Below are positions 9,601 to 62,824 of a stretch of 64,000 bases of DNA, in pieces. Numbering within the stretch: the first letter of the stretch is position 1; each line of letters starts with the position of its first letter. Source of the DNA: Escherichia coli (lineage in GTDB: Bacteria > Pseudomonadota > Gammaproteobacteria > Enterobacterales > Enterobacteriaceae); the NCBI RefSeq assembly GCF_024502345.1, contig NZ_JALDNN010000001.1. The stretch is one strand, 5' to 3'. The notes beneath the pieces were generated by a model, which saw only the letters and a list, made by a program, of their open reading frames with translations, made no database searches and was not told where the DNA came from. A program made the position numbers and the translations under genes.

Positions 9601-9729
9601 AACGGGCAGGGCGCGATAACCGATAATCCCGGCGAGTAAGATCGCCACCATCAGCAGCGTGGTGGCCACAGGACGCATAATAAACAGGCGCGACGGGCCG
9701 CCTGTGCTGCCCGGGGGTAACACCTGCAT
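6607..9729 (-). CDS. mdtB: RND efflux pump subunit MdtB
   Basis: 1040-aa ORF, AcrB/RND family; directly abuts mdtC. Confidence 0.95.
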
Positions 9730-10976
9730 CAGGAGCGAGCTCCTTTTTTCGCGTATTCGCGGCTGGTGGCTTTCTCTTCCGGAGTGGTGGCGCTCTGGGC
9801 TTCCACCACTTCCACTTTCGCCCCTTCGGTCAGGCGATCAATGCCGTCTGTCACCACGCGATCGCCCGCAGAAATACCTGCGCGGATCACCACTTTCTGA
9901 CTGTCCTGAATGCCCGGCGTCACCAGATGTTTGCTGACCTTGTTTTCGCTATTCAGCACCCAGACAAAATGGCCTTCATTGCCCATTTGCAGGGCGGCGG
10001 TGGGGATCACTACGGCGTTTTGTTCGGTGTCGACTAACATGCGCGCGTTAACAAACTGATTGGGAAACAGCGCATCATCCTGATTATTAAAGCGTGCTTT
10101 CACTTTAATCGTACCGGTAGTGGCATCGATTTGGTTATCGAGACTTAACAGCGTGCCTTCACTTAATTTCTTCGAGTTGGTGCGATCCCAGGCTTCTACC
10201 ACCAGCGGTTTTCCGGCTTTTTGCGCCTGCACGACGGTAGCGATATCGCTTTCCGGCAGGGTAAAGAGCAAATCGATAGGATGCGTCTGGGTGATCACCA
10301 CGATCCCGGTGGTATCACCACTGGAGATTTGGTTACCAACATCAACCTGCTTGAGACCAACGCGACCATCGACTGGTGCGGTAATACGGCTCCAGTCGAG
10401 TTGCAGCTGCGCGCTGGCGACGCTTGCTTCATCAGCCTTAATGGTGCCTTCGGTTTCACTGACCAGCGCCTGTTGGGCATCCAGCTCCTGGCGGGAGACG
10501 AGATTGGTTTTTGCCAGTTGCTGATAACGCGCCAGATCACGGCGGGCGTTGGTAAGCGTGGCTTTATCTTTTGCCAGTTGGCCCTGGGCTTGTGCTAATG
10601 CAACTTTGAACTGGCTGGGGTCAATTTCTGCCAGTAAATCGCCTGCTTTGACCTGCTGGCCTTCCTGGAAATGTAACGCCATCAGTTGACCGTCCACGCG
10701 GCTGCGCACCGTAACAGTATTAGCAGCGGTAATGGTGCCAAGCCCGGTGAGGTAACGCGGAACTGCCTGTTCTACGGCGGTCGCCGCCTGAACCGGGGCT
10801 AATGGGCCGGAACGCATACCACGGCGACCACCCGCTGGCGATTGCTGCGCTTGTTTCGTCGCCCCTGGGGCTGCACTCTGGGAGTCATTGCGGCCTTGCC
10901 AGAACCAGAATGCGGCGATGGCGGCGATAACCACCACGATTACGATTACCCAACGGGATTTATAACTGCCTTTCAT
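9729..10976 (-). CDS. mdtA: Membrane fusion protein MdtA
   Basis: Start set at internal ATG ([16 protein letters not shown]...) giving 415 aa; the track ORF extends 49 codons further upstream, which I treat as spurious. 1-nt overlap with mdtB. Confidence 0.9.
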
Positions 10977-11029
10977 CGTTAAGAGTTTCTCTTCCTGAAA
11001 CGTTTCGCGGAATGATACTAGTGTAGCCA

Positions 11030-11047
11030 GCCAATAAGGGAGAAAAA
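11030..11047 (-). promoter_or_regulatory. Candidate BaeR binding box upstream of mdtA
   Basis: Minus-strand sequence TTTTTCTCCCTTATTGGC matches the BaeR consensus I recall (TTTTTCTCCATDATTGGC) at 16 of 18 positions, about 55 bp upstream of the mdtA start. Confidence 0.55.
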
Positions 11048-11194
11048 TGGAGGAATTATGAAACACTATCGGGAATCGTCTGAATGGCGGGCACATTTGC
11101 GAGCACGCATCCAGTAATAACACAGGAAACTATTTTATCTACGCGTTAGCGATAGACTGCTTGCATGGCGAAAGGAGGTAAGCCGACGATTTCA

Positions 11195-11340
11195 GCGGGA
11201 CGCTGAAACGGGAAAGCCCCTCCCGAGGAAGGGGCCATAAATAAGGAAAGGGTCATGATGAAGATACTCATCATCGTGGTGCTCTTAGTGATTAGCTACC
11301 CAGCATACTAAGACTACCAGGGCGGGGGAAACCCCGCTCT
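11195..11340 (-). ncRNA. Sib-type antisense antitoxin RNA, copy 1 (ends approximate)
   Basis: Inferred from Sib/Ibs organisation (Sib is fully antisense to ibs); a hairpin followed by a T-rich tract on the minus strand lies near 11200-11245. Ends not determinable from sequence alone. Confidence 0.4.
11255..11311 (+). CDS. Ibs-family hydrophobic toxin peptide, 18 aa (MMKILIIVVLLVISYPAY)
   Basis: Small ORF with RBS ggaaagggtc 5 nt upstream; Ibs signature MMK + hydrophobic core + PAY end. Confidence 0.75.
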   Translation: MMKILIIVVLLVISYPAY

Positions 11341-11522
11341 ACCCTCACTCCTGAAAGTATGCCTTCACGTTCAGAATGTCAATCCGCAGGCTTTGCAGTC
11401 TGCGATCCTGCCAGCAAATATTCTTTGCGAGACGTTACGCAATAATCACAGAGGAAACTATTTTGTTCACGCGTTAGCGATAGACTGAATTCAGGGCGAA
11501 AGGAGGTAAGCCGACGATTTCA

Positions 11523-11668
11523 GCGGGACGCTGAAACGGGAAAGCCCCTCCCGAGGAAGGGGCCTTAAATAAGGAAAGGGTCATGATGAAGTGGATCATC
11601 ATCGTGGTGCTCTTAGTCATAAGCTTCCCGGCTTACTAAGACTACCAGGGCGGGGGAAACCCCGCTCT
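11523..11668 (-). ncRNA. Sib-type antisense antitoxin RNA, copy 2 (ends approximate)
   Basis: Same reasoning as copy 1, shifted by one repeat unit. Confidence 0.4.
11583..11639 (+). CDS. Ibs-family hydrophobic toxin peptide, 18 aa (MMKWIIIVVLLVISFPAY)
   Basis: Second repeat unit, same RBS context; Trp at position 4. Confidence 0.75.
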   Translation: MMKWIIIVVLLVISFPAY

Positions 11669-11850
11669 ACCCTCACTCCTGAAAGTATGCCTTCACGATA
11701 AGATTGTCAATCTGCAGGCTTTGCAGTCTGCGATCCTGCCAGCAAATATTCTTTGCGAGACGTTACGCAATAATCACACTGGAAACTATTTTATCCGCAA
11801 GTCAGCGATAGACTGCATGCATGGCGAAAGGAGGTAAGCCGACGATTTCA

Positions 11851-11996
11851 GCGGGATGCTGAAACGGGAAAGCCCCTCCCGAGGAAGGGGCCTTAAATAA
11901 GAAAAGGGTTATGATGAAGCACGTCATCATACTGGTGATACTCTTAGTGATTAGCTTCCAGGCTTACTAAGAACACCAGGGGGAGGGGAAACCTCT
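11851..11996 (-). ncRNA. Sib-type antisense antitoxin RNA, copy 3 (ends approximate)
   Basis: Same reasoning as copy 1. Confidence 0.4.
11911..11970 (+). CDS. Ibs-family hydrophobic toxin peptide, 19 aa (MMKHVIILVILLVISFQAY)
   Basis: Third repeat unit; closest to the K-12 IbsA sequence as I recall it. Confidence 0.75.
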   Translation: MMKHVIILVILLVISFQAY

Positions 11997-12189
11997 CCCT
12001 AACCCTCACTCCTGAAATTATGTCACTCCGCCCTTAGTGTCAATCGACGGCTCTCCGTTCTTGCGAGGCGAATAGCAAAATTTTCTGCGCCGCCGGGACT
12101 AATTCTGAAAGTTTCTTCGTTTGCTCTTATTTCATTATTGCAGTCGGTATGATACCGGACCTCAATAATTCTCTAAGAAAGGATTTCTT

Positions 12190-12849
12190 ATGAGCGAACA
12201 AATCACGTTTGCCACCAGCGATTTTGCCAGTAACCCGGAACCACGTTGCCCCTGCATTCTGCTGCTGGATGTTTCTGGCTCGATGAGCGGCAGACCTATT
12301 AATGAACTTAACGCCGGATTGGTTACCTTTCGTGATGAACTGCTTGCTGATCCGCTGGCTTTAAAAAGAGTGGAACTCGGCATTGTGACGTTCGGCCCGG
12401 TGCATGTGGAACAACCCTTTACCAGCGCCGCTAACTTTTTCCCGCCCATCCTGTTTGCCCTGGGGGATACGCCTATGGGGGCCGCCATTACCAAAGCCCT
12501 GGATATGGTAGAGGAGCGGAAACGTGAGTACCGCGCAAATGGTATTTCGTATTATCGCCCGTGGATTTTCCTGATCACCGATGGCGCTCCAACCGATGAG
12601 TGGCAGGCTGCCGCCAACAAAGTGTTTCAGGGGGAAGAAGATAAGAAGTTTGCCTTCTTTTCCATCGGTGTTCAGGGGGCGGATATGAAGACGCTGGCAC
12701 AAATCAGCGTTCGTCAGCCTTTGCCACTGCAGGGATTACAATTCCGTGAACTGTTTAGCTGGTTATCCAGTTCGCTGCGTTCGGTTTCCCGCTCCACGCC
12801 GGGAACGGAAGTTGTGCTGGAAGCGCCAAAAGGCTGGACGTCAGTGTGA
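12190..12849 (+). CDS. yegL: von Willebrand factor A (vWA, TerY-like) domain protein YegL
   Basis: 219-aa ORF with vWA/MIDAS-like start ([12 protein letters not shown]); first gene of a three-gene unit with overlapping junctions. Confidence 0.9.
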
Positions 12850-27139: not shown

Positions 27140-27180
27140 TCAGTGTATTGGTAGCTAAAAAGCCAGGGGCGGTAGCGTGT
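27140..27180 (+). promoter_or_regulatory. JUMPstart element with ops site (GGCGGTAGCGTG at 27168..27179) in the wza leader
   Basis: ggtagctaaaaagccaggggcggtagcgtg matches the JUMPstart/ops (RfaH recruitment) consensus; lies about 180 bp upstream of wza. Confidence 0.85.
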
Positions 27181-41640: not shown

Positions 41641-41709
41641 TAAATAACGACAAAAACAAAATTGGCCGTTTCGGTCAGGGCCAACTATTGCCTGAAAAAG
41701 GGTAACGAC

Positions 41710-43080
41710 ATGAAAAAATTAACCTGCTTTAAAGCCTATGATATTCGCGGGAAATTAGGCGATGAACTGAATGAAGATATCGCCTGGCGCATTGGTCGCG
41801 CCTATGGCGAATTTCTCAAACCGAAAACCATTGTGTTAGGCGGTGATGTCCGTCTCACCAGCGAAACCTTAAAACTGGCGCTGGCAAAAGGTTTACAGGA
41901 TGCGGGCGTTGACGTGCTGGATATCGGTATGTCCGGCACCGAAGAGATCTATTTCGCCACGTTCCATCTCGGCGTGGATGGCGGCATTGAAGTCACCGCC
42001 AGCCATAATCCGGTGGATTATAACGGCATGAAGCTGGTGCGCGAAGGGGCTCGCCCGATCAGCGGTGATACCGGACTGCGCGACGTCCAGCGTCTGGCTG
42101 AAGCCAACGACTTTCCTCCCGTCGATGAAACCAAACGCGGTCGCTATCAGCAAATCAACCTGCGTGACGCTTACGTTGATCACCTGTTCGGTTATATCAA
42201 TGTCAAAAACCTCACGCCGCTCAAGCTGGTGATTAACTCCGGGAACGGCGCAGCGGGTCCGGTGGTGGACGCCATTGAAGCCCGCTTTAAAGCACTCGGC
42301 GCGCCCGTGGAATTAATCAAAGTGCACAACACGCCCGACGGGAATTTCCCCAACGGTATTCCTAACCCGCTACTGCCGGAATGTCGCGACGGCACCCGCA
42401 ATGCGGTCATCAAACACGGCGCAGATATGGGCATTGCCTTTGATGGCGATTTTGACCGCTGTTTCCTGTTTGACGAAAAAGGGCAGTTTATTGAGGGCTA
42501 TTACATTGTCGGCCTGCTGGCAGAAGCATTCCTCGAAAAAAATCCCGGCGCGAAGATCATCCACGATCCACGTCTCTCCTGGAACACCGTTGATGTGGTG
42601 ACGGCCGCGGGCGGCACGCCGGTGATGTCGAAAACCGGACACGCCTTTATTAAAGAACGTATGCGCAAGGAAGACGCCATCTACGGTGGCGAAATGAGCG
42701 CTCACCATTACTTCCGCGATTTCGCTTACTGCGACAGCGGCATGATCCCATGGCTGCTGGTCGCCGAACTGGTGTGCCTGAAAGGAAAAACGCTGGGCGA
42801 ACTGGTGCGCGACCGGATGGCAGCGTTTCCGGCAAGCGGTGAGATCAACAGCAAACTGGCGCAACCCGTTGAGGCGATTAACCGCGTCGAACAGCATTTT
42901 AGCCGCGAGGCGCTGGCGGTGGATCGTACCGATGGCATCAGCATGACCTTTGCCAACTGGCGCTTTAATCTGCGCTCCTCCAACACCGAACCGGTGGTGC
43001 GGTTGAATGTGGAATCGCGCGGTGATGTGCCGCTGATGGAAGCGCGAACGCGAACTCTGCTGACGTTGCTGAACGAGTAA
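41710..43080 (+). CDS. cpsG: Phosphomannomutase (ManB)
   Basis: Start set at [17 protein letters not shown] (456 aa); the track ORF is extended 16 codons upstream. Confidence 0.95.
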
Positions 43081-46094: not shown

Positions 46095-46440
46095 TTGTTT
46101 TCGGTTTCGGCAATGGTTGCCGGATGCGGCGTAAAACGCCTTATCCATCCTACGGTTCTGTGCTCGGGACCTGTAGGCCTGATAAGACGCGTCAGCGTCG
46201 CATCAGGCACTGAATGCCGGATGCGGCGTGAACGCCTTATCCGGCCTACGGTTCTGTGCTCGGGTCTTGTAGGCCTGATAAGACGCGCCAGCGTCGCATC
46301 AGGCACTGAATGCCGGATGCGGCGTGAACGCCTTATCCATCCTACGGTTCTGTGCTTGGATCTTGTAGGCCTGATAAGACGCGCCAGCGTCGCATCAGGC
46401 AAAAAACGGCAACGAACACAACAAACACAGCCTCACCTGG
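46095..46440. repeat. REP array (BIME cluster) between wzxC and wcaK
   Basis: Six alternating units of gccggatgcggcgtgaacgccttatcc...cctacg and gtaggcctgataagacgcg(c/t)cagcgtcgcatcaggc. Confidence 0.85.
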
Positions 46441-51759: not shown

Positions 51760-52653
51760 ATGACGAATTTAAAAGCAGTTATACCGGTAGCGGGTCTTGG
51801 GATGCATATGTTGCCTGCCACTAAGGCGATACCCAAAGAGATGCTACCGATCGTCGACAAGCCAATGATTCAGTACATTGTTGACGAGATTGTGGCTGCA
51901 GGGATCAAAGAAATCCTCCTGGTAACTCACGCGTCCAAGAACGCAGTCGAAAACCACTTCGACACCTCCTATGAATTAGAATCTCTCCTTGAACAGCGCG
52001 TGAAGCGTCAACTACTGGCGGAAGTGCAATCTATCTGTCCACCGGGAGTGACCATTATGAACGTGCGTCAGGGCGAACCTTTAGGTTTAGGCCACTCCAT
52101 TTTGTGTGCGCGACCTGCCATTGGTGACAACCCATTTGTCGTGGTACTGCCAGACGTAGTGATCGACGACGCCAGCGCCGACCCGCTGCGTTACAACCTT
52201 GCCGCTATGATTGCGCGCTTCAATGAAACGGGACGCAGCCAGGTGCTGGCAAAACGTATGCCGGGTGATCTCTCTGAATACTCCGTCATTCAGACCAAAG
52301 AACTGCTGGATCGCGAAGGTAAAGTCAGCCGCATTGTTGAATTCATCGAAAAACCGGATCAGCCACAAACGCTGGACTCAGACATCATGGCCGTTGGTCG
52401 CTATGTGCTTTCTGCCGATATTTGGCCGGAACTTGAACGCACTCAACCTGGTGCATGGGGGCGTATTCAGCTAACTGATGCCATTGCCGAACTGGCAAGA
52501 AAACAGTCCGTTGATGCAATGCTGATGACTGGTGACAGCTACGACTGCGGTAAAAAAATGGGGTATATGCAGGCGTTTGTGAAGTATGGACTACGCAACC
52601 TGAAAGAAGGGGCGAAGTTCCGTAAAGGTATTGACAAGCTGTTAAGCGAATAA
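51760..52653 (+). CDS. galF: UTP-glucose-1-phosphate uridylyltransferase-like regulatory subunit GalF
   Basis: 297-aa [46 protein letters not shown]. Confidence 0.96.
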
Positions 52654-52886
52654 TGAAAATCTGACCGAATGTAACGGTTGATAAGACAAATTATAACGGC
52701 AGTGAAGATTCCTGTGGGGAGTAATTTGTTGCGATTACCACTGTCGTTATTCAACTATAAGCATAAAAAAGTTAAATATAATTTGGGGATTTTAAGTATA
52801 TGGAAACGCCTTTGTCTACTGAATAAGTAAAGTATTAACTGTAAGAAAAGCGTGAATGGTGTTCCCTACATAATTTAAAGATATTC

Positions 52887-52925
52887 AGTCTACTGGTAGC
52901 TGTTAAGCCAGGGGCGGTAGCGTGG
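52887..52925 (+). promoter_or_regulatory. JUMPstart element with ops site (GGCGGTAGCGTG at 52913..52924) upstream of the O-antigen cluster
   Basis: cagtctactggtagctgttaagccaggggcggtagcgtg matches the 39-bp JUMPstart consensus closely. Confidence 0.9.
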
Positions 52926-52956: not shown

Positions 52957-54348
52957 ATGAATTTACTTAAAGGGACAATAATATATACATTGTCAAATTT
53001 GACAATTAAATTTGGTGCAGTTTTACTGCTTCCTATATTAACTCATTTACTTAATCCAGAAGAGTATGGGATGGTAGGATTGTATGTTACACTTACTTCC
53101 TTTCTTACAATAATTTTAGGGCTTGGTTTTTATACACCCTTAATGAAAACTCAGTCGGAGCAGAAAAGCAATATTGCAACTTCAAACCATGTAAATTTTT
53201 GTGCGATAATATTTCTTATCGCAGTTTATTTATTATTGCTTTTATTTCTTTACTTTATATTGAAGTCGTCTTTAGTTATTGATTTGTTGGGGGAGGTGAA
53301 ACTAGATAGCAAATTAATTTATTTGGCAGTTATTGTATCAATGTTTTCTGCAATTAATATTATTATGAACACGTCGTTTAGAATGGACGAGAATTATATA
53401 TTAGTTGCAATATTGTCAATTTTATCTTTTGTGTTATTTTATTCCTCTGCTATAATATTCATTAAACTGTTCAATTATGGAGGCCTTGGCTATATATATG
53501 GCAATTTATTAAGTTCAATAATCATTTTTTTTATAAGTTTCACTTGTTACTATAGAAAATTATCTATTGCATTTTCATGGCACAACGTGAAATTTTTGTG
53601 TAGGAATGGAATTCCAATGGTTTTTGTAGAGTTATCTGATAAAATAATTGAAGCCAGCGATAGATTTATTTTAGTCAGATATATTTCACTATCCTCTTTA
53701 GGCGTATATACACTAGCACTAACGGGATGTAAAGTATTAAACGTAGTTTTCAATTCTTATATTAGCGCTATCCTTCCCTCTATCTATAAAAGCGTTGAAA
53801 GCCGTGAAGATTCAAATTATATAAAAGTGAAGCTTGAGAATGCATACGTGCTTGTAGTGATGATGGTTTTTTTGGGACAGTTGATATCAAAAGAAATAAT
53901 TGACATAATTTTTCCTGCATCATATTCAAATTTATTTTTTGTATTTATATTAGCTTTGCCTGCAATATCTCTTCAATATTATTATTTCTTAGATTTCTAT
54001 TTTCATAGAAGTGAAGATAGCCGATTTATTTTATGTTTTACAATAGCAACCTCGATAATAAATATTATTCTAAACTTAATTTTTGTTCCCAAATATGGAG
54101 TTTATGCATCTCTTTTATCAACGTATATATCCTATTTAATCAGAACGCTAGTAGAAATAAAATTTATAGCGAGACGGTATAAATTGAAGTTTAGTGTGCT
54201 TAACGTCCTTATGGGAAGCTTTGTTCTGTATACTGTTCCTTTATTATATCATTATGGTTATTATACAGTGTTGTTGAGAGTAACTTTGTCAATTGTTTTA
54301 TTTATAGGTATTATTATGTTTTATAAAAAAAGTAGAATATTCAATTAA
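52957..54348 (+). CDS. wzx: O-antigen flippase Wzx
   Basis: 463-aa multi-TM ORF of the polysaccharide-transporter family; first gene after JUMPstart; low GC. Confidence 0.8.
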   Translation: MNLLKGTIIYTLSNLTIKFGAVLLLPILTHLLNPEEYGMVGLYVTLTSFLTIILGLGFYTPLMKTQSEQKSNIATSNHVNFCAIIFLIAVYLLLLLFLYFILKSSLVIDLLGEVKLDSKLIYLAVIVSMFSAINIIMNTSFRMDENYILVAILSILSFVLFYSSAIIFIKLFNYGGLGYIYGNLLSSIIIFFISFTCYYRKLSIAFSWHNVKFLCRNGIPMVFVELSDKIIEASDRFILVRYISLSSLGVYTLALTGCKVLNVVFNSYISAILPSIYKSVESREDSNYIKVKLENAYVLVVMMVFLGQLISKEIIDIIFPASYSNLFFVFILALPAISLQYYYFLDFYFHRSEDSRFILCFTIATSIINIILNLIFVPKYGVYASLLSTYISYLIRTLVEIKFIARRYKLKFSVLNVLMGSFVLYTVPLLYHYGYYTVLLRVTLSIVLFIGIIMFYKKSRIFN

Positions 54349-54361
54349 AAGTGAGTGCTAA

Positions 54362-55546
54362 GTGATCATGGTTAATGCTAAAAATTTTGTATTAATTATT
54401 TTTGATGTAATATGTCTTTTTTTTAATGTTTTTATTTATGTCCCACGTCTAATTATTGGTGTTTTAACAGTAGATAAAACATTGATTATTACATTTCCCT
54501 TGATGTTATCAGTGTTGGCATATAATTTTATTCCACCAGAAACATATGATCTTTACAGACATTATGAAAACTATCAAAATTTTTTGAATAATAATGAAGT
54601 AAGTTTTATCAGGGATTTTTTTCTTTATTTTTTATTTACCGTAGGGAGGTTTTTTGATTTAAATAATGGATTTATAGCATTTGTATCTTGTTATATCCTC
54701 TATTTTTATTGGTTAAAAATATTATACATTAACTTTGATTATAAAGCCAAGAAGAAAAATTTCCCGTTATACTTTCTTATATTTTTTATTACTCCACCTC
54801 TTGTTATATATACAGGCGTTCGATTTTCCACAGGGCTTATATTAACACTGTATGGGATTGTAAACTGGATTCAATTACGGAATGTAAAACTTGGTATAGT
54901 ATATATTATTTGCGGGTTAACAGCCCATTTTTCAATGGCATTGATTGCTTTAATATTTATTTTCACATCATATTTCAATAATATCTTTTCAAATAAATAT
55001 TTAAGGGTTGGGTTCGTATTTTCTGCATTACTTGTAATCTCATTTAATGAACAGTTAGTAAGGTTTTTGACAACAGTAATTGAGTTCATTAATCAGTTAT
55101 TTGATTGGAACTTTATTAGTATCGATACATATATTACTGGTAAATGGGGGCTGGAGAGGGCGCAGGAATTGAATTCAACCGGACAATTAGTATTAGGTAT
55201 ACGTAATTATGGTATGCTCTTTCTAATATTGCTATTTTGCCCACTAATATCTTTTAATAAAAATAAATATACGAACTTTTATTATGTAATGTGTGCTGTT
55301 ACAATATTAGTTTTCCCTTTTACAGCAGTATTTGATAGATATGGAACATTTTTAATTTTTTTTATTGTATACTATCTTAGTACTCTTCAGAAAAAAACTA
55401 ACATTGAAATAATATATTTTTTAACGTTGATTGTATATTTGATTTTCTTTAGAGCAATAGACATCAAAGATAATATTTCCGTATACACTGAAAGCTATAG
55501 TAATATATTGAATCTTTCTTTAATTAAAGTACTGTTAGGAATATAA
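54362..55546 (+). CDS. wzy: O-antigen polymerase Wzy (putative)
   Basis: 394-aa highly hydrophobic multi-TM ORF next to wzx; start may be ATG at 54368. Confidence 0.65.
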   Translation: MIMVNAKNFVLIIFDVICLFFNVFIYVPRLIIGVLTVDKTLIITFPLMLSVLAYNFIPPETYDLYRHYENYQNFLNNNEVSFIRDFFLYFLFTVGRFFDLNNGFIAFVSCYILYFYWLKILYINFDYKAKKKNFPLYFLIFFITPPLVIYTGVRFSTGLILTLYGIVNWIQLRNVKLGIVYIICGLTAHFSMALIALIFIFTSYFNNIFSNKYLRVGFVFSALLVISFNEQLVRFLTTVIEFINQLFDWNFISIDTYITGKWGLERAQELNSTGQLVLGIRNYGMLFLILLFCPLISFNKNKYTNFYYVMCAVTILVFPFTAVFDRYGTFLIFFIVYYLSTLQKKTNIEIIYFLTLIVYLIFFRAIDIKDNISVYTESYSNILNLSLIKVLLGI

Positions 55547-56526
55547 TGCGTAAATATGAAAATAATATTGTTATAAGTGTGATTATTCCAACATATAACA
55601 ATGATAAAACAATCATAGAGGCTATTCAATCTATAGTAAATGTTGAGATGCCTGTGAAATATGAGGTGCTAGTAATAGACGATGGTTCGGTAGATCAGAC
55701 ATCAAATTTAATTGCAGAATATATAAGTCAAAGAAAAGATAATACTATTAAATATTTTTATCAAAAAAACAGTGGTGTAAGCGCTGCGAGAAACGTGGGA
55801 ATAAAAAATGCATTAGGGAAATATGTTCTATTTTTAGACGCAGATGATACATATAGTGAACATGTGTTAAAAGAAATAGATGAAATATTAAGTACTAACA
55901 ATGATATATATGTGTTTTCATATGAAAAACTGAATAATAAAAAGGCTATAATATCAAATAAAAAAAATATTATAACTCATTATAATAGTAAATATGATTT
56001 TTTAAACTCCTATATCTCAGGTGAACTTTTCGGGTGCGTTAGTGTTTGCTCTTGCATTTTTAGTAAAGAATCATTAATTAGCAATAATATTTTTTACGAT
56101 AGTAAAATTGCTTATGGGGAAGATCAATGGTTTTTGATAAATGCTCTCAAGGTTTGCAATGATGTAGAGTTCAGATTAGAACTAAATTTACTGAATTATA
56201 CTTATAATACGGAGTCGGCGACTAATCGTTTCAACCTAAGACGTTTTGACGCGATTACAATGCTAGAAAGAATCAATCAAGAAGCATTTAAGGTTAATCA
56301 AGATATAATTAATGCAAGAATTAATAAAGAATTGGTAAATATAGCAACAATATATACGAAATTCAATTCGTTACAGAAATCAATAATGTTTGTTAATAAC
56401 GTTATACTCCCAAAAATAAAAACGGATAGTGACAAAAGACTATATATGTTCAAAGATATGGTTTTCACTAGATTACCATATTTATATATAATACTTTATA
56501 AACTCTATATTAAGCTATTTAAGTAA
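55546..56526 (+). CDS. Glycosyltransferase family 2
   Basis: 326-aa ORF, ISVIIPTYNN...DDGSVD...LDADD (GT-A, DXD). Confidence 0.8.
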   Translation: MRKYENNIVISVIIPTYNNDKTIIEAIQSIVNVEMPVKYEVLVIDDGSVDQTSNLIAEYISQRKDNTIKYFYQKNSGVSAARNVGIKNALGKYVLFLDADDTYSEHVLKEIDEILSTNNDIYVFSYEKLNNKKAIISNKKNIITHYNSKYDFLNSYISGELFGCVSVCSCIFSKESLISNNIFYDSKIAYGEDQWFLINALKVCNDVEFRLELNLLNYTYNTESATNRFNLRRFDAITMLERINQEAFKVNQDIINARINKELVNIATIYTKFNSLQKSIMFVNNVILPKIKTDSDKRLYMFKDMVFTRLPYLYIILYKLYIKLFK

Positions 56527-56532
56527 ACTAAT

Positions 56533-57714
56533 ATGAATATTCTTATAATTATTCCTAAGTTATGTAACGGTGGGATTGAAAAAATTGCATCAAACTTTTC
56601 TCAATACTTACCAGAAAGATATAATCAATTTGTATATTCAATCATGTCACAAGACTCTTCTTATGATTTTGCGGTAAAGCCCATTATATTAAATAAAAGT
56701 TTAGGTAAAACCTTTATTGGAAAATTGATTACATTTTTCTACAGGCTTCATTTGGCACGTAAAATTATTAGAGAAAATAACATAGATATATGCATTAGTT
56801 TTGGGGAGAGATGTAATATTATAAATATTCTATCTATGGGGAAAACAAAAAAAATCATTACTATACATAGTCAGCTATCTATTGAAAATAAAACAAAAGG
56901 ATTATATGGGAAAGTTACAACACTATTTTCAAAATTGCTTTATAAAAATGCGGATGCTACTGTAGCCGTATCAGAAATAGTGAAGAAGGATGCGTGCGGT
57001 TTATTAAATTTAGATGCGAATAATGTAGAGCTAATTTATAATGGACACGATATTGATTATATCAAAGATAAGTCTACTGATTATAAAGAATTTGATACAC
57101 CTGTGATCGACTTCGTGTCTGTAGGGCGAATTACATATGCTAAAGGGCATTATCATCTATTGAGAAGTCTTGCCATAGTAAAGGAGACGTATCCTAATGT
57201 AATACTATATATTGTTGGCACGTATGAAAAAGATAATTTAAAAAGCATAATTGATCATTTAATTGAGAAATACGATTTATATGATAATGTGATTTTTACC
57301 GGCTTTAGTGACAATCCATATCCTTACATAAAATCAGCAAAGGCTCTTATACTTAGTTCAATTTTTGAAGGTTTTCCAGGCGTTGTTATCGAGAGTATTG
57401 CGCTTGGAACTCCTGTCATAGCGACAGATTGTGGCGGTGCTTCAGAAGTTTTAAAAAGTCCAGATGCCAAAATAAAGAATAATACGGGAGATGTGGAAAT
57501 TACTAAATTAGGAGTACTGTTACCAAAATTCGATGGGATTTATGATATTAATTTGGATTTTTCGCCCACAGAAAAAAAGATGGCGCAAGTTATGAATGAT
57601 ATTATATCAGGGAAGCTGAAATTTAATGAAGACTTTTTAATTACAAAAGCAAACGAATATGATATAGATTCTATGATGAAAAAATATACGGACTTAATAG
57701 AGAAAATAAAATAA
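56533..57714 (+). CDS. Glycosyltransferase family 4 (GT-B)
   Basis: 393-aa ORF with C-terminal EGFPGVVIESIALGTPVIATDCGG motif. Confidence 0.8.
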   Translation: MNILIIIPKLCNGGIEKIASNFSQYLPERYNQFVYSIMSQDSSYDFAVKPIILNKSLGKTFIGKLITFFYRLHLARKIIRENNIDICISFGERCNIINILSMGKTKKIITIHSQLSIENKTKGLYGKVTTLFSKLLYKNADATVAVSEIVKKDACGLLNLDANNVELIYNGHDIDYIKDKSTDYKEFDTPVIDFVSVGRITYAKGHYHLLRSLAIVKETYPNVILYIVGTYEKDNLKSIIDHLIEKYDLYDNVIFTGFSDNPYPYIKSAKALILSSIFEGFPGVVIESIALGTPVIATDCGGASEVLKSPDAKIKNNTGDVEITKLGVLLPKFDGIYDINLDFSPTEKKMAQVMNDIISGKLKFNEDFLITKANEYDIDSMMKKYTDLIEKIK

Positions 57715-58685
57715 TGAAAGAAGCTACTACCTCATATAAATCAATTCATACTATATTAGATTATTTTGGTTGGTCTCATGAAGATTATTGGCATATCAAC
57801 TATAAAGTAAATTATGATTTTTCAAAATTTAATTATTATTGGGATTTGACAAAAAAGTATAATTGGTTTAGTGGACCTTTTGATCAAAATAATATTCCTT
57901 TATATCTTGGCACTGATTCAAAACTGCATTACTCGCCAATTTTTTTAGGGCATTATGCTCTTGGAGCATATCAAGAATATCTATTATCAAATGATAAAAA
58001 AGCATATGACGATTTTATAAGAATAGCGGATTGGTTTGTTGAAAATACAACGACATATAAAAAATGTTCTGGAATATGGATAAATACATACCCAATGTCA
58101 ACTTTTAACTTAAAAGGTAAATGGCAATCGTGTTTAGCCCAGGCAAAAGGTATATCTGTCCTATGTAGAGCTTATTATCTTACGCAAAATTTAAAATATT
58201 TGAAGGTAGCTCTTGACGCATTTGAATCTTTCAAAATATATAAAGAAGAAGGTGGAGTTAAGGTAAGGCATAAAAACGTATTCTTTTGGGAGGAATATCC
58301 AACTATAACCAATTCTATCGTATTGAATGGACATATTTTTGCAGTTTGGGCATTGTACGATTTATCTTTTGTATTAAAAGATAAGAACGAATTTAAGCAA
58401 CAATGGACGGATATTTACAGTTATTATAAAAAATCACTGATTATATTAAAAGAGAATTATAAGTTATGGGATACGCGCTATTGGACTAGATATGATATAT
58501 GGGATAAACATTTTAATGTTTCAAGTTTGTTTTATCATAATCTCCATATTAAACAATTCTATATATTGGCTGTTTTGGGAGATGATGATGATTTCAAGAA
58601 AATTGCTAATAAATGGGCTGGTAAATTAAAAAATCCGCTTTTCAGAATGTATGCGCTTATAAAGAAAGTAGTTTTTAGGTTATGA
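57714..58685 (+). CDS. D-glucuronyl C5-epimerase-like protein (C-terminal domain family), putative hexuronate epimerase
   Basis: 323-aa soluble ORF; AQAKGISVLCRAYYLT and FWEEYPTITNSIVLNGHIFAVWALYDL resemble, from memory, conserved blocks of the glucuronyl C5-epimerase C-terminal domain. Confidence 0.5.
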   Translation: MKEATTSYKSIHTILDYFGWSHEDYWHINYKVNYDFSKFNYYWDLTKKYNWFSGPFDQNNIPLYLGTDSKLHYSPIFLGHYALGAYQEYLLSNDKKAYDDFIRIADWFVENTTTYKKCSGIWINTYPMSTFNLKGKWQSCLAQAKGISVLCRAYYLTQNLKYLKVALDAFESFKIYKEEGGVKVRHKNVFFWEEYPTITNSIVLNGHIFAVWALYDLSFVLKDKNEFKQQWTDIYSYYKKSLIILKENYKLWDTRYWTRYDIWDKHFNVSSLFYHNLHIKQFYILAVLGDDDDFKKIANKWAGKLKNPLFRMYALIKKVVFRL

Positions 58686-59563
58686 TTATGAATGTTATTG
58701 ATAAAATTATTATGGGTTTGAAAAGTATATATTTAAGCTTTCTTTATACAATATATAATTTATTTCTTAATGAAAATAGATTCGAAGAGACAAATGAAGT
58801 ACATGTTGTTGTAAGTTTGACGTGTTTTCCTGGACGTATAAAAAAAGTATATCTTACTTTGGAGTCAATTATGGCTCAACAATATAATAACTTTAAAGTG
58901 GTATTGTACTTGTCTCATGAAGAGTTTCCAAAGGGTTTAGAGGATTTACCTCGTAGTTTAATACGATTACATAAAAGAGGTGTCGATATTAATTTTACGT
59001 GTGAAAATATTCGATCTTATAAGAAGTTACATTATGCGCTGAGTGATTTCCCGGAACTACCTGTAATAACAGCTGATGATGATGTCTTATATCCCTCGCG
59101 ATGGGTAAATGATTTTATGGAGTCACATAAGCTTTTTCATGATGATATATTATTTGCGAGGGGGCATCAGATAACATTTGACCGAAATGGAAATGTTAAA
59201 AAATATATCTCTTTCGGAAAACCAGCTGGATATTCAGCATCAAGTTTATATATTCCTACAGGAGTAAGTGGAATTCTATATCCGCCAGGATGTTTTTTTC
59301 AAGATGTGCAGAATAAAGATATTTTTATGAAGTTGGCACCTAACGCAGATGATATATGGTATAAAGTAATGACTTTGTTAAACGGTCGAAAATCCAGATT
59401 GATCTATAAAAAGCCAATTCATTATCCACCTATCCTTGGCACACAGAAGATCTCCTTGCGTAAACAAAACTTATCGAAACAACATTTAAATAATGATACA
59501 CAATTATTAAATTTAATTGATTATTATTCTATCGAATTAGCTGATTTTAAGAAAAAGGAATAG
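58682..59563 (+). CDS. Putative glycosyltransferase, family unassigned
   Basis: 293-aa ORF with N-terminal hydrophobic segment and DXD-like ITADDDV motif; 4-bp overlap with the upstream gene. Confidence 0.45.
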   Translation: MIMNVIDKIIMGLKSIYLSFLYTIYNLFLNENRFEETNEVHVVVSLTCFPGRIKKVYLTLESIMAQQYNNFKVVLYLSHEEFPKGLEDLPRSLIRLHKRGVDINFTCENIRSYKKLHYALSDFPELPVITADDDVLYPSRWVNDFMESHKLFHDDILFARGHQITFDRNGNVKKYISFGKPAGYSASSLYIPTGVSGILYPPGCFFQDVQNKDIFMKLAPNADDIWYKVMTLLNGRKSRLIYKKPIHYPPILGTQKISLRKQNLSKQHLNNDTQLLNLIDYYSIELADFKKKE

Positions 59564-59568
59564 CTCCT

Positions 59569-60309
59569 ATGGAATTAGTTTCAATTATAATGCCTTGTTT
59601 TAATAATGAAGCAACTATAAAAGAAAGTATTAACAGCGTACTATCTCAAAGTTATAAATGCTGGGAGTTAATTATTATCAATGACAACTCAACAGATGAT
59701 TCACAAAATATTATTAACGACTATGTGAATAGTGATGAAAGAATAAAACTGATTACTAATGAAAAAAATATCGGAGCTGGAGGTAGTAGAAATAAAGGAA
59801 TTGAAATTGCAAATGGAAGATTCATTGCTTTTTTAGATGCAGATGATGTTTGGTTGCCAGAAAAACTTGCAAAACAAATAAAGTTTATGAGAGATGGTAA
59901 TTATGCACTGACATATAGTTATTATCAAAAGTTTGATTCAACTGGATTGGGAGCGATCGTCCGGTCACCTGCTACAACAACCTATAGGAAATTGTTATAC
60001 AGTAATGTTATTGGATGTCTAACAGGAATGTATGATACTGATTTTTTGGGTAAATGCTATATGCCTTTAATTCGTAAACGACAAGATATGGGGCTTTGGT
60101 TGTCAATATTGAAAAAGTGTAATAAAGCATATTGCTTACCTGAAGTTTTGGCATATTATAGAATTGACTCAGGAATGACAAAAAATAAACTTGATGCGGC
60201 AAAATATCAGTGGCGATTTTATAGGGACGTAACTAAACTTAATTTGATTCAATCAAGTTGGTATTTTGTTTGGTATTCAGTTTTAGGTTTGGTAAAGTAC
60301 AAAAAATAA
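59569..60309 (+). CDS. Glycosyltransferase family 2
   Basis: 246-aa ORF, VSIIMPCFNN...NDNSTDDS...LDADD. Confidence 0.8.
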   Translation: MELVSIIMPCFNNEATIKESINSVLSQSYKCWELIIINDNSTDDSQNIINDYVNSDERIKLITNEKNIGAGGSRNKGIEIANGRFIAFLDADDVWLPEKLAKQIKFMRDGNYALTYSYYQKFDSTGLGAIVRSPATTTYRKLLYSNVIGCLTGMYDTDFLGKCYMPLIRKRQDMGLWLSILKKCNKAYCLPEVLAYYRIDSGMTKNKLDAAKYQWRFYRDVTKLNLIQSSWYFVWYSVLGLVKYKK

Positions 60310-60318
60310 TAAGGAGGA

Positions 60319-61332
60319 GTGATGACAATTTTAGTCACTGGTGGTGCTGGATATATTGGCAGTCACACTGTTATTGAATTACAGAAAAATGGTTTTGACG
60401 TGGTAATAGTAGATAATTTTTGTAATTCATCGCCATCGGTTTTAAAAAGAATTGAATTAATTACAGGGAAGGAAATTAAATGTTACGATATTGATCTTCT
60501 GGATTTTAATTCTTTGCAGAAGGTTTTTGTAACTAATAATATTAACTCTGTGATTCATTTTGCATCTTTAAAATCAGTTTCTGAATCACTAATCAAACCA
60601 ACTGAATATTATCATAATAATTTGAGTGGTTGCCTCAATGTCTTGAAAATAATGAAAGAACATAACGTGAATAATTTCATTTTCAGTTCTTCGGCAACTG
60701 TATATGGCAGTAATAACAACAATCCTGTTTCAGAATCTTCATCAGTCGGCACCGCAACAAATCCTTATGGAAAATCCAAGATTTTTTTAGAGCAAATATT
60801 GTCTGATTGCTGTAAATCAAATCCTAATTTAAATGTAACTTGCCTGAGGTATTTCAATCCGGTTGGTGCACATTCTTCAGGTTTGATAGGAGAATCTCCG
60901 AATGGTGTTCCTGCCAATTTAGTTCCATATTTAACTCAGGTTGCTTTAGGTAAATTGCCCGTATTACATATATATGGTAATGACTATGATACCAAGGATG
61001 GGACGGGAGTAAGAGATTTTATTCATGTTACGGATTTAGCTAATGGACACATAGCTGCGCTGAAAAAAATAAATGGTCATAATGGTTTTAAAGTTTATAA
61101 TCTTGGTACTGGGCGAGGTTATAGTGTGTTAGAAGTCGTTAGATGTTTTGAGGCTATTACAGGAAAAAGTATTCCAATCGAATTTTCGCCTCGCAGAGAA
61201 GGTGATATCGCTGAAAGTTGGGCAAATGTTTCCGCAGCAAATTATGAGTTAGAGTGGTTCGCTAAAAAGACATTAACTGATATGTTACGAGATGCATGGA
61301 AATGGCAAACGTTAAATCCAAATGGATTATAA
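60319..61332 (+). CDS. UDP-hexose 4-epimerase, GalE family (UDP-Glc/UDP-GlcNAc 4-epimerase)
   Basis: 337-aa ORF, MTILVTGGAGYIGSHTVIELQKNGFDVVIVDNFCNS, closely GalE-like; last gene of the O-antigen cluster. Confidence 0.85.
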   Translation: MMTILVTGGAGYIGSHTVIELQKNGFDVVIVDNFCNSSPSVLKRIELITGKEIKCYDIDLLDFNSLQKVFVTNNINSVIHFASLKSVSESLIKPTEYYHNNLSGCLNVLKIMKEHNVNNFIFSSSATVYGSNNNNPVSESSSVGTATNPYGKSKIFLEQILSDCCKSNPNLNVTCLRYFNPVGAHSSGLIGESPNGVPANLVPYLTQVALGKLPVLHIYGNDYDTKDGTGVRDFIHVTDLANGHIAALKKINGHNGFKVYNLGTGRGYSVLEVVRCFEAITGKSIPIEFSPRREGDIAESWANVSAANYELEWFAKKTLTDMLRDAWKWQTLNPNGL

Positions 61333-61417: not shown

Positions 61418-62824
61418 ATGTCAAAGCAACAGATCGGCGTCGTCGGTATGGCAGTGATGGGGCGCAACCTTGCGCTCAACATCGAAAGCCGTGGTTATAC
61501 CGTCTCTATTTTCAACCGTTCCCGTGAAAAGACGGAAGAAGTGATTGCCGAAAATCCAGGCAAGAAACTGGTTCCTTACTATACGGTGAAAGAGTTTGTT
61601 GAATCTCTGGAAACGCCTCGTCGCATCCTGTTAATGGTGAAAGCAGGTGCAGGCACGGATGCTGCTATTGATTCTCTCAAGCCATACCTCGATAAAGGCG
61701 ACATCATCATTGATGGTGGTAACACCTTCTTCCAGGACACCATCCGTCGTAACCGTGAGCTTTCTGCAGAAGGCTTTAACTTCATTGGTACCGGTGTCTC
61801 CGGTGGTGAAGAAGGCGCGCTGAAAGGTCCTTCCATTATGCCTGGTGGGCAGAAAGAAGCCTATGAACTGGTTGCGCCGATCCTGACAAAAATCGCCGCA
61901 GTGGCTGAAGACAGCGAACCGTGCGTTACCTATATTGGTGCCGATGGCGCAGGTCACTATGTGAAGATGGTTCACAACGGTATTGAGTACGGCGATATGC
62001 AGCTGATTGCTGAAGCCTATTCTCTGCTTAAAGGTGGTCTGAACCTCACCAACGAAGAACTGGCGCAGACCTTTACCGAGTGGAATAACGGTGAACTGAG
62101 CAGCTACCTGATCGACATTACCAAAGACATCTTCACTAAAAAAGATGAAGACGGTAACTACTTGGTTGATGTGATCCTGGATGAAGCGGCAAACAAAGGT
62201 ACGGGCAAATGGACCAGCCAGAGCGCACTGGATCTCGGCGAACCGCTGTCGCTGATTACCGAGTCTGTGTTTGCACGATACATCTCTTCTCTGAAAGATC
62301 AGCGCGTTGCTGCGTCTAAAGTTCTCTCTGGCCCACAAGCGCAGCTAGCTGGCGACAAGGCTGAGTTCATCGAAAAAGTTCGCCGTGCACTGTATCTGGG
62401 CAAAATCGTTTCTTACGCTCAGGGGTTCTCTCAACTGCGTGCGGCGTCTGAAGAGTACAACTGGGATCTGAACTACGGCGAAATCGCGAAGATTTTCCGT
62501 GCTGGCTGCATCATCCGTGCGCAGTTCCTGCAGAAAATCACCGATGCTTATGCCGAAAATCCGCAAATCGCTAATCTGCTGCTGGCTCCGTACTTCAAGC
62601 AAATTGCCGATGACTACCAGCAGGCGCTGCGTGATGTCGTTGCTTATGCAGTACAGAACGGTATCCCTGTTCCTACCTTCGCTGCTGCGGTTGCCTATTA
62701 CGACAGCTACCGCGCCGCTGTTCTGCCTGCGAACCTGATCCAGGCACAGCGTGACTATTTCGGTGCGCATACTTATAAGCGCATTGATAAAGAAGGTGTG
62801 TTCCATACCGAATGGCTGGATTAA
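61418..62824 (+). CDS. gnd: 6-phosphogluconate dehydrogenase (decarboxylating)
   Basis: 468-aa [33 protein letters not shown]. Confidence 0.97.

Follow-up and report, generated by a model that had tools for sequence, protein, structure and literature searches.

Three tandem units of the ibs/sib type I toxin-antitoxin family in the mdtA-yegL intergenic region of Escherichia coli

The window analysed here is the whole stretch of 64,000 nucleotides taken from an E. coli genome (contig NZ_JALDNN010000001.1), and the gap between its mdtA and yegL genes contains a tandem array of three head-to-tail units with a period of 328 bp (positions 11096-12051). The flanking genes and the repeat units are located as follows:

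9729-10977, minus strand: mdtA, left flank, true start codon at 10977 (RefSeq annotation, near-identical loci)
11096-11423, no strand assigned: repeat unit 1, mdtA-proximal, 328 bp (repeat search and TRF)
11424-11751, no strand assigned: repeat unit 2, middle, 328 bp (repeat search and TRF)
11752-12085, no strand assigned: repeat unit 3, yegL-proximal, sibA/ibsA type (repeat search and TRF)
12190-12849, plus strand: yegL, right flank, vWA-domain protein (RefSeq annotation of near-identical loci)

The repeat search placed the copies at 11096-11395, 11424-11723 and 11752-12051, with spacings of 328 and 328 bp, and TRF returned a period of 328, 2.8 copies, 90% matches and a score of 1456 over 11115-12022; a three-copy repeat of this kind is far beyond chance. 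Units 1 and 2 are 90.5% identical to each other and unit 3 shares 77-79% identity with them, a likeness that dwindles past ca. 12051; the three units are separated from one another by 31-74 substitutions. On the left flank, a 464-aa mdtA ORF produced by mechanical ORF calling was discarded as an over-extension, since RefSeq annotation at near-identical loci starts at 10977. An earlier sequence-only reading had already proposed three direct repeats of ca. 328 bp between mdtA and yegL, with which the repeat search, TRF and the RefSeq flanks agree; the span that it gave, 11105-12085, is accurate to ca. 10-35 nt when compared to the repeat search.

On the plus strand, each unit contains one short ORF:

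11255-11311, plus strand: ibs ORF 1, IbsB-like, 18 aa, MMKILIIVVLLVISYPAY, identical to WP_012767742.1
11583-11639, plus strand: ibs ORF 2, IbsB-like, 18 aa, MMKWIIIVVLLVISFPAY, identical to WP_012767741.1
11911-11970, plus strand: ibsA ORF of unit 3, 19 aa, MMKHVIILVILLVISFQAY, identical to K-12 IbsA (b4667), WP_010723109.1

None of these ORFs is disrupted, each having a start codon, a Shine-Dalgarno sequence and a stop codon, and their highly hydrophobic products of 18-19 residues are each identical to a RefSeq Ibs-family toxin protein (the product name of WP_012767742.1 being "type I toxin-antitoxin system Ibs family toxin"). Direct sequence identity was used for this assignment because the peptides are shorter than 20 aa and Pfam, NCBIfam and PHROGs need at least 20-30 aa. 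By homology, the unit 3 product is IbsA while those of units 1 and 2 are close to IbsB, the K-12 form of which differs from each of them by two residues. The ORF 2 peptide is also found in four-copy alleles and in Nissle-type two-copy alleles. Residues 4, 5 and 15 distinguish the peptide of unit 1 from that of unit 2; the unit 3 peptide further differs at residue 8, around a one-residue insertion, and by a P/Q change two residues before the C-terminus. The initial description of distinct Ibs-like peptides of 18, 18 and 19 aa, differing at positions 4-8 and near the C-terminus, thus reads the ORFs correctly and summarises their differences fairly. Each ORF also has its own ribosome-binding site, as had been noticed: in units 1 and 2 this is AAGGA, 7 nt upstream of the first ATG (11243-11247 in unit 1), and in unit 3 the weaker AAGAAAAGGG. 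A generic scan of the array flagged no ibs promoter or terminator signal. When the ibs start sites are modelled on the one mapped for ibsC, which is located 18 nt past the 3' end of SibC, the candidate ibs promoter would be a poor TTGCAT-N18-GACGAT whose -35 box is degraded in unit 2.

The minus strand of each unit matches a Sib antisense RNA, for which the following features were placed:

11211-11346, minus strand: Sib1 antitoxin RNA, 136 nt, +1 G at 11346, terminator hairpin 11215-11236 (Rfam 140.1 bits)
11377-11382, minus strand: sib1 promoter -35 box TTGACA, read from sequence, with a CATACT/TACTTT -10 region downstream and the start site 31 nt past the box
11539-11674, minus strand: Sib2 antitoxin RNA, 136 nt, +1 G at 11674, terminator hairpin 11541-11566 (Rfam 140.1 bits)
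11705-11710, minus strand: sib2 promoter -35 box TTGACA, the 37 nt from box to start site being identical to the K-12 sibB promoter
11867-12007, minus strand: Sib3 (SibA-type) antitoxin RNA, 141 nt, +1 G at 12007, terminator hairpin 11869-11894 (Rfam 145.5 bits)
12038-12043, minus strand: sib3 (sibA) promoter -35 box TTGACA, identical to the K-12 sibA promoter

These three matches to the Rfam model RF00113 (SIB_RNA) are full-length, covering model positions 1-147 of 147 with a gathering score of 56, and bear out the presumption of one antisense Sib RNA per unit; all three ibs ORFs lie wholly within the Sib spans. Minimum free energy folds predict one common architecture for the three RNAs, made of a P1 closing stem, a TRD1 stem-loop, a P6 hairpin and the terminator, with a predicted energy of -58.1 kcal/mol for Sib1 (z = -3.8) and z values of -4.6 for Sib2 and -4.5 for Sib3. 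The same generic scan flagged no sib promoter or terminator, its rules rating the -10 boxes and U-tracts as weak, and the sib ends were therefore taken from identity to the annotated K-12 ends (homology to SibB for Sib1). For sib1, the -35 box and the segment from -10 to the start site match K-12 sibB and the spacer differs at 4 positions; the first position of the Rfam model falls at this -35 box. Alignment with the annotated sibA and sibB ends of K-12 thus predicts for each Sib RNA its own promoter, 5' end and intrinsic terminator, with a length of ca. 140 nt.

The alignment to K-12 that the sequence-only reading had called for was run and gave 95% identity of unit 3 to the sibA/ibsA unit, and 97% and 92% of units 1 and 2, respectively, to sibB/ibsB. 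The Rfam covariance model, the peptides, the synteny with K-12 and the Sib promoters, start sites and terminators all agree with the proposed ibs/sib type I toxin-antitoxin identity, and the array very probably consists of three functional chromosomal modules arranged head to tail. As for expression, toxicity and repression, we infer them from published K-12 and Salmonella work. The plus strand of each unit would encode an 18-19 residue, very hydrophobic Ibs peptide which, in excess, would damage the inner membrane and energy metabolism: toxicity on overproduction is known for K-12 IbsA/C/E and others (Han 2010, PMC2943612), and IbsA of Salmonella inhibits the FoF1 ATP synthase, lowering ATP and membrane potential (bioRxiv 10.1101/2025.05.26.656083). 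From the minus strand, a constitutive, structured Sib RNA of ca. 136-141 nt would be produced with perfect complementarity to the entire ibs ORF and its ribosome-binding region, a complementarity that is inherent to cis-antisense genes, repression by pairing being published for K-12 pairs only. Pairing with the ibs mRNA would begin at two exposed elements, TRD1, a loop facing the C-terminal codons, and TRD2, a single-stranded stretch that faces the Shine-Dalgarno sequence and start codon and adjoins the P6 hairpin loop. The resulting duplex would block translation and be cleaved by RNase III, so that the toxin would normally not be made; cognate repression, TRD1/TRD2 and RNase III cleavage have all been described for the K-12 pairs (Han 2010, PMC2943612).

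Whether the array comprises three independent pairs or two specificity groups depends on Sib1 and Sib2, which differ at only 10 of 136 nt (the TRD1 equivalent accounts for 5 of them and the P6 loop for 4, the last one lying at the TRD2 edge), whereas Sib3 differs from either at ca. 30 positions. In units 1 and 2, respectively, the P6-loop patch is at 11264-11267 and 11592-11595 and the TRD1 patch at 11290-11305 and 11618-11633. Sib1 and Sib2 might cross-repress each other's toxin mRNA, in which case units 1 and 2 would form one group with redundant antitoxin cover and unit 3 (ibsA) the other; we regard this as a serious possibility that falls somewhat short of an even chance. The two RNAs have perfect common blocks of 41, 26, 26 and 22 nt, one 26-nt block spanning the TRD2 target, i.e. 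start codon and Shine-Dalgarno sequence, and work on the K-12 pairs has established that either TRD alone suffices, that an engineered contiguous helix of 22 or 25 bp repressed a non-cognate ibs mRNA and that ibsA is already an exception to strict cognate control (Han 2010, PMC2943612). However, 9 of the 10 differences fall in the TRD1 equivalent and the P6 apical loop, which are the reported discriminators (P ca. 4e-6 for uniform scatter), and 4 of the 5 changes in the TRD1 patch are synonymous, as expected if RNA pairing diverges rather than the peptide. Moreover, K-12 SibD and SibE have a longer common block, 36 nt over P6/TRD2, with only 15 nt differing. The available calibrators point in opposite directions, SibD/SibE being reported as specific despite this block whereas cross-recognition is suspected for SibA/SibE with 24 nt. 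The suggestion that each Sib may be specific for its own mRNA is consistent with the location of the differences and with the published K-12 paradigm (Han 2010, PMC2943612) but is insecure for units 1 and 2, which are 10 nt apart and have in common the 26 nt of perfect complementarity that span the translation initiation region. With so few differences, the two units offer a natural test of how few changes suffice for Sib/ibs discrimination.

It is very unlikely that the IbsA/SibA unit alone is of importance, with one or two of the duplicates decaying and devoid of function. This reading would fit with ibs promoters that look weak, the putative -35 box of unit 2 being degraded, and with lineages that get by with a single unit or that have two units without ibsA. 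Against it, the ORFs with their start codon, Shine-Dalgarno sequence and stop codon are intact in all three units, sib promoters, start sites and terminators have been kept in each, the Rfam scores are equally high and the same peptides recur in two-, three- and four-unit alleles. Conservation across distant lineages also argues against decay: unit 1 agrees at all of the 330 nt compared (100%) with its counterpart in O157:H7 F6294 and in GF3-3, and unit 2 has 98-100% identity with the second unit of O157:H7, of GF3-3 and of the four-copy strain 1919D3. Pseudogene copies were thus rejected on the basis of intact ORFs, conserved sib signals and equal Rfam scores. Finally, although short-read assemblies can mis-count tandem repeats of ca. 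330 bp, the chance that the third unit is a mis-assembly is negligible and this option was rejected, since a sizeable proportion of the finished genomes, which come from numerous laboratories and include one that is 99.4% identical, have the same layout and spacing, and units that differ by 31-74 substitutions are easily told apart.

The number of units was also set against that in other genomes of the species. The locus was matched in 5,419 of 5,426 complete E. coli genomes, and two systematic samples of the 5,422 RefSeq complete E. coli records gave ca. 42% with three units (41 of the 97 sampled records), 45% with two, 10% with four and 2% with one. O157:H7 EDL933 and Sakai, E. coli W and BL21 are examples of three-unit strains, and arrays of one to four units correspond to mdtA-yegL spacers of ca. 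560, 885, 1,212 and 1,540 bp. The array had been taken as a copy-number variant, as K-12 has two copies here. The K-12 annotation does consist of sibA/ibsA and sibB/ibsB and the term holds relative to that strain, but it does not hold as a rarity: with these frequencies, the three-unit form is a major, common allele, about as frequent as the two-unit form of K-12. K-12 is therefore not a reference state: two units cannot be called more typical than three, and alleles with four units, with a single unit or without ibsA occur besides.

Variable SIB repeat numbers are said to have been reported already by Fozo et al. in 2008. Published work covers the module and its mechanism as well as its duplication in tandem and the differences in its number among strains, and this exact three-gene layout is already annotated routinely by NCBI. 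In particular, the number of Ibs genes varies from strain to strain, with 6-7 in O157:H7 strains versus 5 in K-12 (Fozo 2010, PMC2887945). In the literature searched, no study that surveys ibs/sib copy numbers and mosaic types at the level of populations was found, a 2024 survey covering tisB, shoB and zor only.

Across strains, the 1 to 4 units present at this site are block mosaics of one another, a pattern which indicates recurrent unequal crossing-over. In the K-12 ibsB unit, for instance, the 5' portion equals that of window unit 1 or of 1919D3 unit 1 and the 3' portion equals that of window unit 2 or of 1919D3 unit 3, the changeover falling within the ORF (runs-test P = 1.5e-5, or 4e-4 without flank sites). 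An ungapped model linking the four-, three-, two- and one-unit alleles by single deletions failed on small indels; site-painting, used in its place, found several switch points among the alleles, so that no simple 4-to-3-to-2 pathway can be asserted. We tentatively propose, as a possible rather than a probable reading, that the array acts as a recombining cassette system. Unequal crossing-over and gene conversion would break the units within the invariant core of the 57-nt ORF and close to its start codon, and would reshuffle two short specificity patches, i.e. the P6 loop (codons 4-5) and TRD1 (codons 12-17). Each event would alter the copy number (1-4 units) and could yield a new toxin/antitoxin specificity; since one and the same DNA encodes both partners, the new pair would fit together from the outset. 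On this reading, units 1 and 2 would stand at the threshold of orthogonality. The block mosaics indicate that copy number changes by recombination within the toxin ORF, a feature that might be exploited as a marker or taken as an example for studying the diversification of duplicated antisense systems.

Among known systems, the closest is sibA/ibsA-sibB/ibsB of K-12 (formerly QUAD1a/b), which occupies the same yegL-mdtA site in the same orientation to the flanks, with a period of 329 bp versus 328 bp in the window and two units instead of three. Unit 3 encodes the identical IbsA peptide and has an 86-nt block identical to SibA (nt 20-105 of Sib3), while the 3' 36 nt of Sib3, comprising the terminator and the ibs 5' UTR, are of the SibB and not of the K-12 SibA type and the ibsA Shine-Dalgarno sequence is AAGAAAAGGG versus AAGGAAAGGG in K-12. 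Units 1 and 2 share with sibB the -35 box, the sequence from -10 to the start site, the +1 G and the terminator, but K-12 IbsB (LL...F) is exactly encoded by neither unit 1 (IL...Y) nor unit 2 (WI...F). RefSeq records of O157:H7 and many other strains have the same gene order, spacing and three peptides, with DNA 98.8-99.4% identical over 1.4 kb; these three-unit records differ from the window by few substitutions, and in them the ibs CDS are annotated but the Sib RNAs are not. The sibD/ibsD-sibE/ibsE pair of K-12, in the yqiK-hldE spacer, is likewise tandem and closely related, although it belongs to another locus and peptide subfamily. Its two RNAs differ at 15 nt clustered in TRD1 and the edge of TRD2, and offer the best precedent at hand for a small divergence that goes with a reported lack of cross-reaction; they start with an NAD-capped +1 A, whereas the Sib RNAs of the window start with G, as do the uncapped SibA and SibB. 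More distantly, ldr/rdl and zor/orz also combine a small hydrophobic toxin with an antisense RNA antitoxin, occur as tandem duplicates within a single spacer and vary in copy number between strains (0-4 for zor/orz in 2,212 genomes), but their sequences are unrelated and their antitoxins pair with the 5' UTR, whereas Sib overlaps the whole ORF.

The mdtA-yegL spacer region is a genuine tandem repeat. The sequence-only reading had seen three repeats of about 328 bp there, and these are present, at positions that differ from its own by ca. 10-35 nt. A repeat search of the window recovered three in-register copies, spaced start to start by exactly 328 and 328 bp, and Tandem Repeats Finder described 11115-12022 as 2.8 copies of period 328 with 90% matches, no indels and a score of 1456. 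Alignment of the units gives 90.5% identity between units 1 and 2, and 77-79% between unit 3 and either of them.

Features of the array (Sib ends placed by homology to annotated K-12 sibA/sibB)
10977, minus strand: mdtA start codon (RefSeq annotation), left flank
11096-11395: repeat copy 1 (repeat search)
11255-11311, plus strand: ibs1, ibs ORF of unit 1, MMKILIIVVLLVISYPAY
11240-11382, minus strand: RF00113 match of unit 1, 140.1 bits
11346 to 11211, minus strand: Sib1, 136 nt
11424-11723: repeat copy 2 (repeat search)
11583-11639, plus strand: ibs2, ibs ORF of unit 2, MMKWIIIVVLLVISFPAY
11568-11710, minus strand: RF00113 match of unit 2, 140.1 bits
11674 to 11539, minus strand: Sib2, 136 nt
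11752-12051: repeat copy 3 (repeat search)
11911-11970, plus strand: ibsA, ibs ORF of unit 3, MMKHVIILVILLVISFQAY
11896-12043, minus strand: RF00113 match of unit 3, 145.5 bits
12007 to 11867, minus strand: Sib3, 141 nt
12190-12849, plus strand: yegL, right flank

In RefSeq the mdtA start is at 10977 and the peptide opens MKGSYKSRW. A longest-ORF listing carries this gene (9729-11123, minus strand, GTG start, 464 aa) 146 nt too far, into unit 1, and an automatic caller of that kind would hide the first ~28 nt of the unit, on its mdtA-proximal side.

Each unit contains a plus-strand ORF beginning with ATGATGAAG. A different Ibs-like peptide with its own ribosome-binding site had been proposed for each, and this holds: AAGGA lies 7 nt upstream of the ORF in units 1 and 2, and unit 3 has the weaker AAGAAAAGGG. 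The unit 3 peptide is identical to K-12 IbsA, and those of units 1 and 2 are each two residues away from K-12 IbsB (MMKLLIIVVLLVISFPAY). The antisense RNA presumed for each unit is likewise predicted, since a scan of the window against all Rfam families gave three full-length minus-strand matches to RF00113 (SIB_RNA, type "antitoxin"), scoring 140.1-145.5 bits where the gathering score is 56, and no further Sib copy elsewhere in the 64 kb. The observation of three tandem units is confirmed, and their interpretation as ibs/sib modules is supported. As the Rfam model runs from the -35 box and ends before the terminator, RNA ends were placed via K-12 sibA/sibB homology, and all three ORFs lie wholly within their own Sib transcripts. 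A TTGACA -35 box lies upstream of each Sib. Through the start site, the sib2 promoter is identical to that of K-12 sibB and the sib3 promoter to that of K-12 sibA; the sib1 promoter departs from that of sibB at 4 positions of the spacer. All three predicted RNAs have a G at the 5' start and a GC-rich hairpin at the 3' end. Folded alone, they share the order closing stem, 5' hairpin, TRD1 stem-loop, P6 hairpin, single-stranded stretch and terminator, with folding energies 3.8-4.6 sd below shuffled controls.

Elsewhere in the window, the O-antigen cluster (52957-61332) is of serogroup O112ab (wzx/wzy annotated as O112ab family); it is flanked by galF (51760-52653) and gnd (61418-62824) and is 100% identical over 8.5 kb to that of several E. 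coli genomes. Ops-containing JUMPstart elements precede this cluster and the colanic-acid cluster, which is expected anatomy.

Other RNA elements in the window
27141-27179, plus strand: JUMPstart ahead of the colanic-acid cluster
41656-41705, plus strand: algC RNA motif, upstream of a 472-aa ORF (41662-43080)
46176-46246 and 46272-46342, minus strand: two adjacent naRNA4 (REP-derived, CssrE) matches, colanic-acid region
52886-52924, plus strand: JUMPstart ahead of the O-antigen cluster

The founding paper of 2008 reportedly noted that related bacteria vary in how many SIB repeats they carry. Between yegL and mdtA, K-12 MG1655 carries two units (sibA/ibsA and sibB/ibsB), as the earlier reading stated, and the window has three. 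A megablast search with window 10900-12300 matched 5,419 of 5,426 complete E. coli genomes; the best matches, GF3-3 (99.4%) and O157:H7 (98.8%), have the three-gene layout of the window. With 99.4% as the highest identity, the source strain is probably absent from this collection. Units were then counted from match span and annotated Ibs genes in two evenly spaced samples of the ranked records.

Unit counts in sampled records
First sample, 39 informative rows: three units 15, two 18, four 4, one 2
Second sample, 59 informative rows: three units 27, two 26, four 6, one 0
Both, one common record removed, 97 rows: three units 41, two 44, four 10, one 2

The term copy-number variant therefore stands for the one unit more than in K-12 but not in any sense of rarity, as three units occur in ca. 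42% of the 97 sampled records, against 45% with two, 10% with four and 2% with one, shares that describe sequenced genomes, a collection skewed to clinical lineages, and not E. coli in nature. The sampled three-unit share agrees with the 2,087 of 5,422 records at ≥95% identity, the band in which almost every sampled three-unit match lies. Roughly half of the genomes with two units (Nissle 1917 and B2-type records like it) lack ibsA and carry [WI..F][LL..Y] instead, so that "two copies" stands for two different alleles.

Alleles, mdtA side first (IbsB-like peptides given by residues 4-5 and residue 15)
N2250, 1 unit: IbsA
K-12, 2 units: LL..F (IbsB), IbsA
Nissle 1917, 2 units: WI..F, LL..Y, without IbsA
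Window, O157:H7 and GF3-3, 3 units: IL..Y, WI..F, IbsA
1919D3, 4 units: LL..Y, WI..F, LL..F, IbsA

Painting informative sites across units of different alleles revealed mosaics. The 5' part of K-12 sibB/ibsB follows window unit 1 at all assignable sites and most of its 3' part follows unit 2, with a switch between ORF positions +13 and +36 (23 vs 7 sites, 3 runs, P = 1.5e-5; P = 4e-4 once sites merely reflecting the array edge are dropped); taking units 1 and 3 of 1919D3 (four units) as its parents gives an exact fit. In window unit 3, the ibsA ORF is joined to an IbsB-like ibs 5' UTR and Sib terminator (11867-11910), the two meeting immediately 5' of the start codon (P ~1e-6), which is why nt 20-105 of Sib3 form an 86-nt block identical to K-12 SibA and its final 36 nt are of SibB type. 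The ibsA Shine-Dalgarno also carries a G-to-A change (AAGAAAAGGG vs AAGGAAAGGG in K-12), and the O157:H7 ibsA unit likewise has the IbsB-type 5' UTR, terminator hairpin and Shine-Dalgarno change. By this pattern, the window and O157:H7 unit is recombinant relative to K-12 sibA/ibsA. The second Nissle unit is a patchwork (P below 1e-11), and the peptide variants are combinatorial, LL being seen with both Y15 and F15. Taken from sequence comparison, these data point to recurrent unequal crossing-over or gene conversion inside the array; because several switch points are needed, no simple pathway or direction can be assigned.

The window array would work as published for the ibs/sib of other strains. 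In K-12, five Sib RNAs of ~140 nt each lie opposite an Ibs toxin of 18-19 residues, and each represses its cognate ibs mRNA only, with the exception of ibsA, the sole mRNA apparently under non-cognate Sib control (Han et al. 2010, PMC2943612). Target recognition by SibC uses two independent domains, TRD1 (+46 to +68, a loop pairing within the ORF) and TRD2 (+99 to +115, single-stranded, pairing with the translation initiation region), either of which is enough; from these contacts pairing spreads, RNase III cuts the duplex and the mRNA is degraded (PMC2943612). SibC could be redirected to ibsD by exchanging both TRDs, and a contiguous 22-25 bp helix was sufficient (PMC2943612).

We aligned Sib1-3 with the five K-12 Sib RNAs (SibA-E) and located the TRDs by their published coordinates. 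Sib3 differs from Sib1 or Sib2 at ~30 positions and clearly belongs to a separate type. Between Sib1 and Sib2, 10 of the 136 positions are different: five belong to the TRD1-equivalent, four sit side by side in the P6 apical loop, antisense to codons 4-5, and the remaining one is at TRD2's 3' edge. Of the ten, nine fall within 27 of the 136 nt (P ~4e-6 under uniform scatter). In the TRD1-equivalent patch (11290-11305 vs 11618-11633; codons 12-17 of ibs1/ibs2), 4 of 5 substitutions are synonymous, and the Pro16 codon is CCA, CCG or CCC among the three IbsB-like unit types across strains, a pattern suggesting that RNA pairing, and not the peptide, is what selection or recombination has acted on. 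This clustering, together with the synonymous changes, supports the idea that each Sib is specific for its own mRNA. It also tells against cross-repression of each other's toxin mRNA by Sib1 and Sib2, which we regard as possible rather than probable; in its favor, Sib1 would still make perfect helices of 41, 26, 26 and 22 bp with ibs2 mRNA, one of 26 bp spanning the start codon and Shine-Dalgarno, and the longest block shared by any pair of K-12 SibA, SibB and SibC is at most 14 nt. The calibrator pairs point opposite ways. Our alignment reproduces the +90 to +113 block (24 nt) common to SibA and SibE, which may allow SibE to recognise ibsA (Han 2010, PMC2943612), but SibD and SibE, regarded in the literature as non-cross-reacting, have only 15 differing nt and an identical 36-nt block that runs over the P6 loop and TRD2, so that for tandem pairs the published "either TRD suffices" rule and the reported specificity do not obviously agree. 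With modest probability, the array may be one of recombining specificity cassettes, of which units 1 and 2 would lie at the limit of orthogonality.

Sib1-3 all start with G, whereas the NAD-capped K-12 SibC, SibD and SibE start with A, SibA and SibB (+1 G) being uncapped (2026 paper). Salmonella IbsA is reported to bind the a and b subunits of FoF1 ATP synthase and thereby to lower ATP and membrane potential (2025 preprint, bioRxiv 10.1101/2025.05.26.656083). The family, its tandem layout and the cognate-specificity model have been published (Han 2010, PMC2943612; Fozo 2010, PMC2887945). Fozo et al. counted 6 Ibs genes in O157:H7 EDL933, 7 in Sakai, 7 in S. boydii and 4 in S. flexneri 2a and discussed lineage-specific duplications (PMC2887945); for K-12 the number is five copies, according to another paper, which cites Fozo 2008. 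The three-gene layout of O157:H7 and GF3-3 is already annotated by the NCBI pipeline, with all three proteins identical to the window's peptides (WP_012767742.1, WP_012767741.1 and IbsA, WP_010723109.1). We noticed no population census of the array in the literature searched, so the series of one- to four-unit alleles and the mosaic analysis may not yet be in print. The window array itself is a common and unremarkable allele of an already known, well-characterised system, and the allele series and mosaics extend that picture without changing it.
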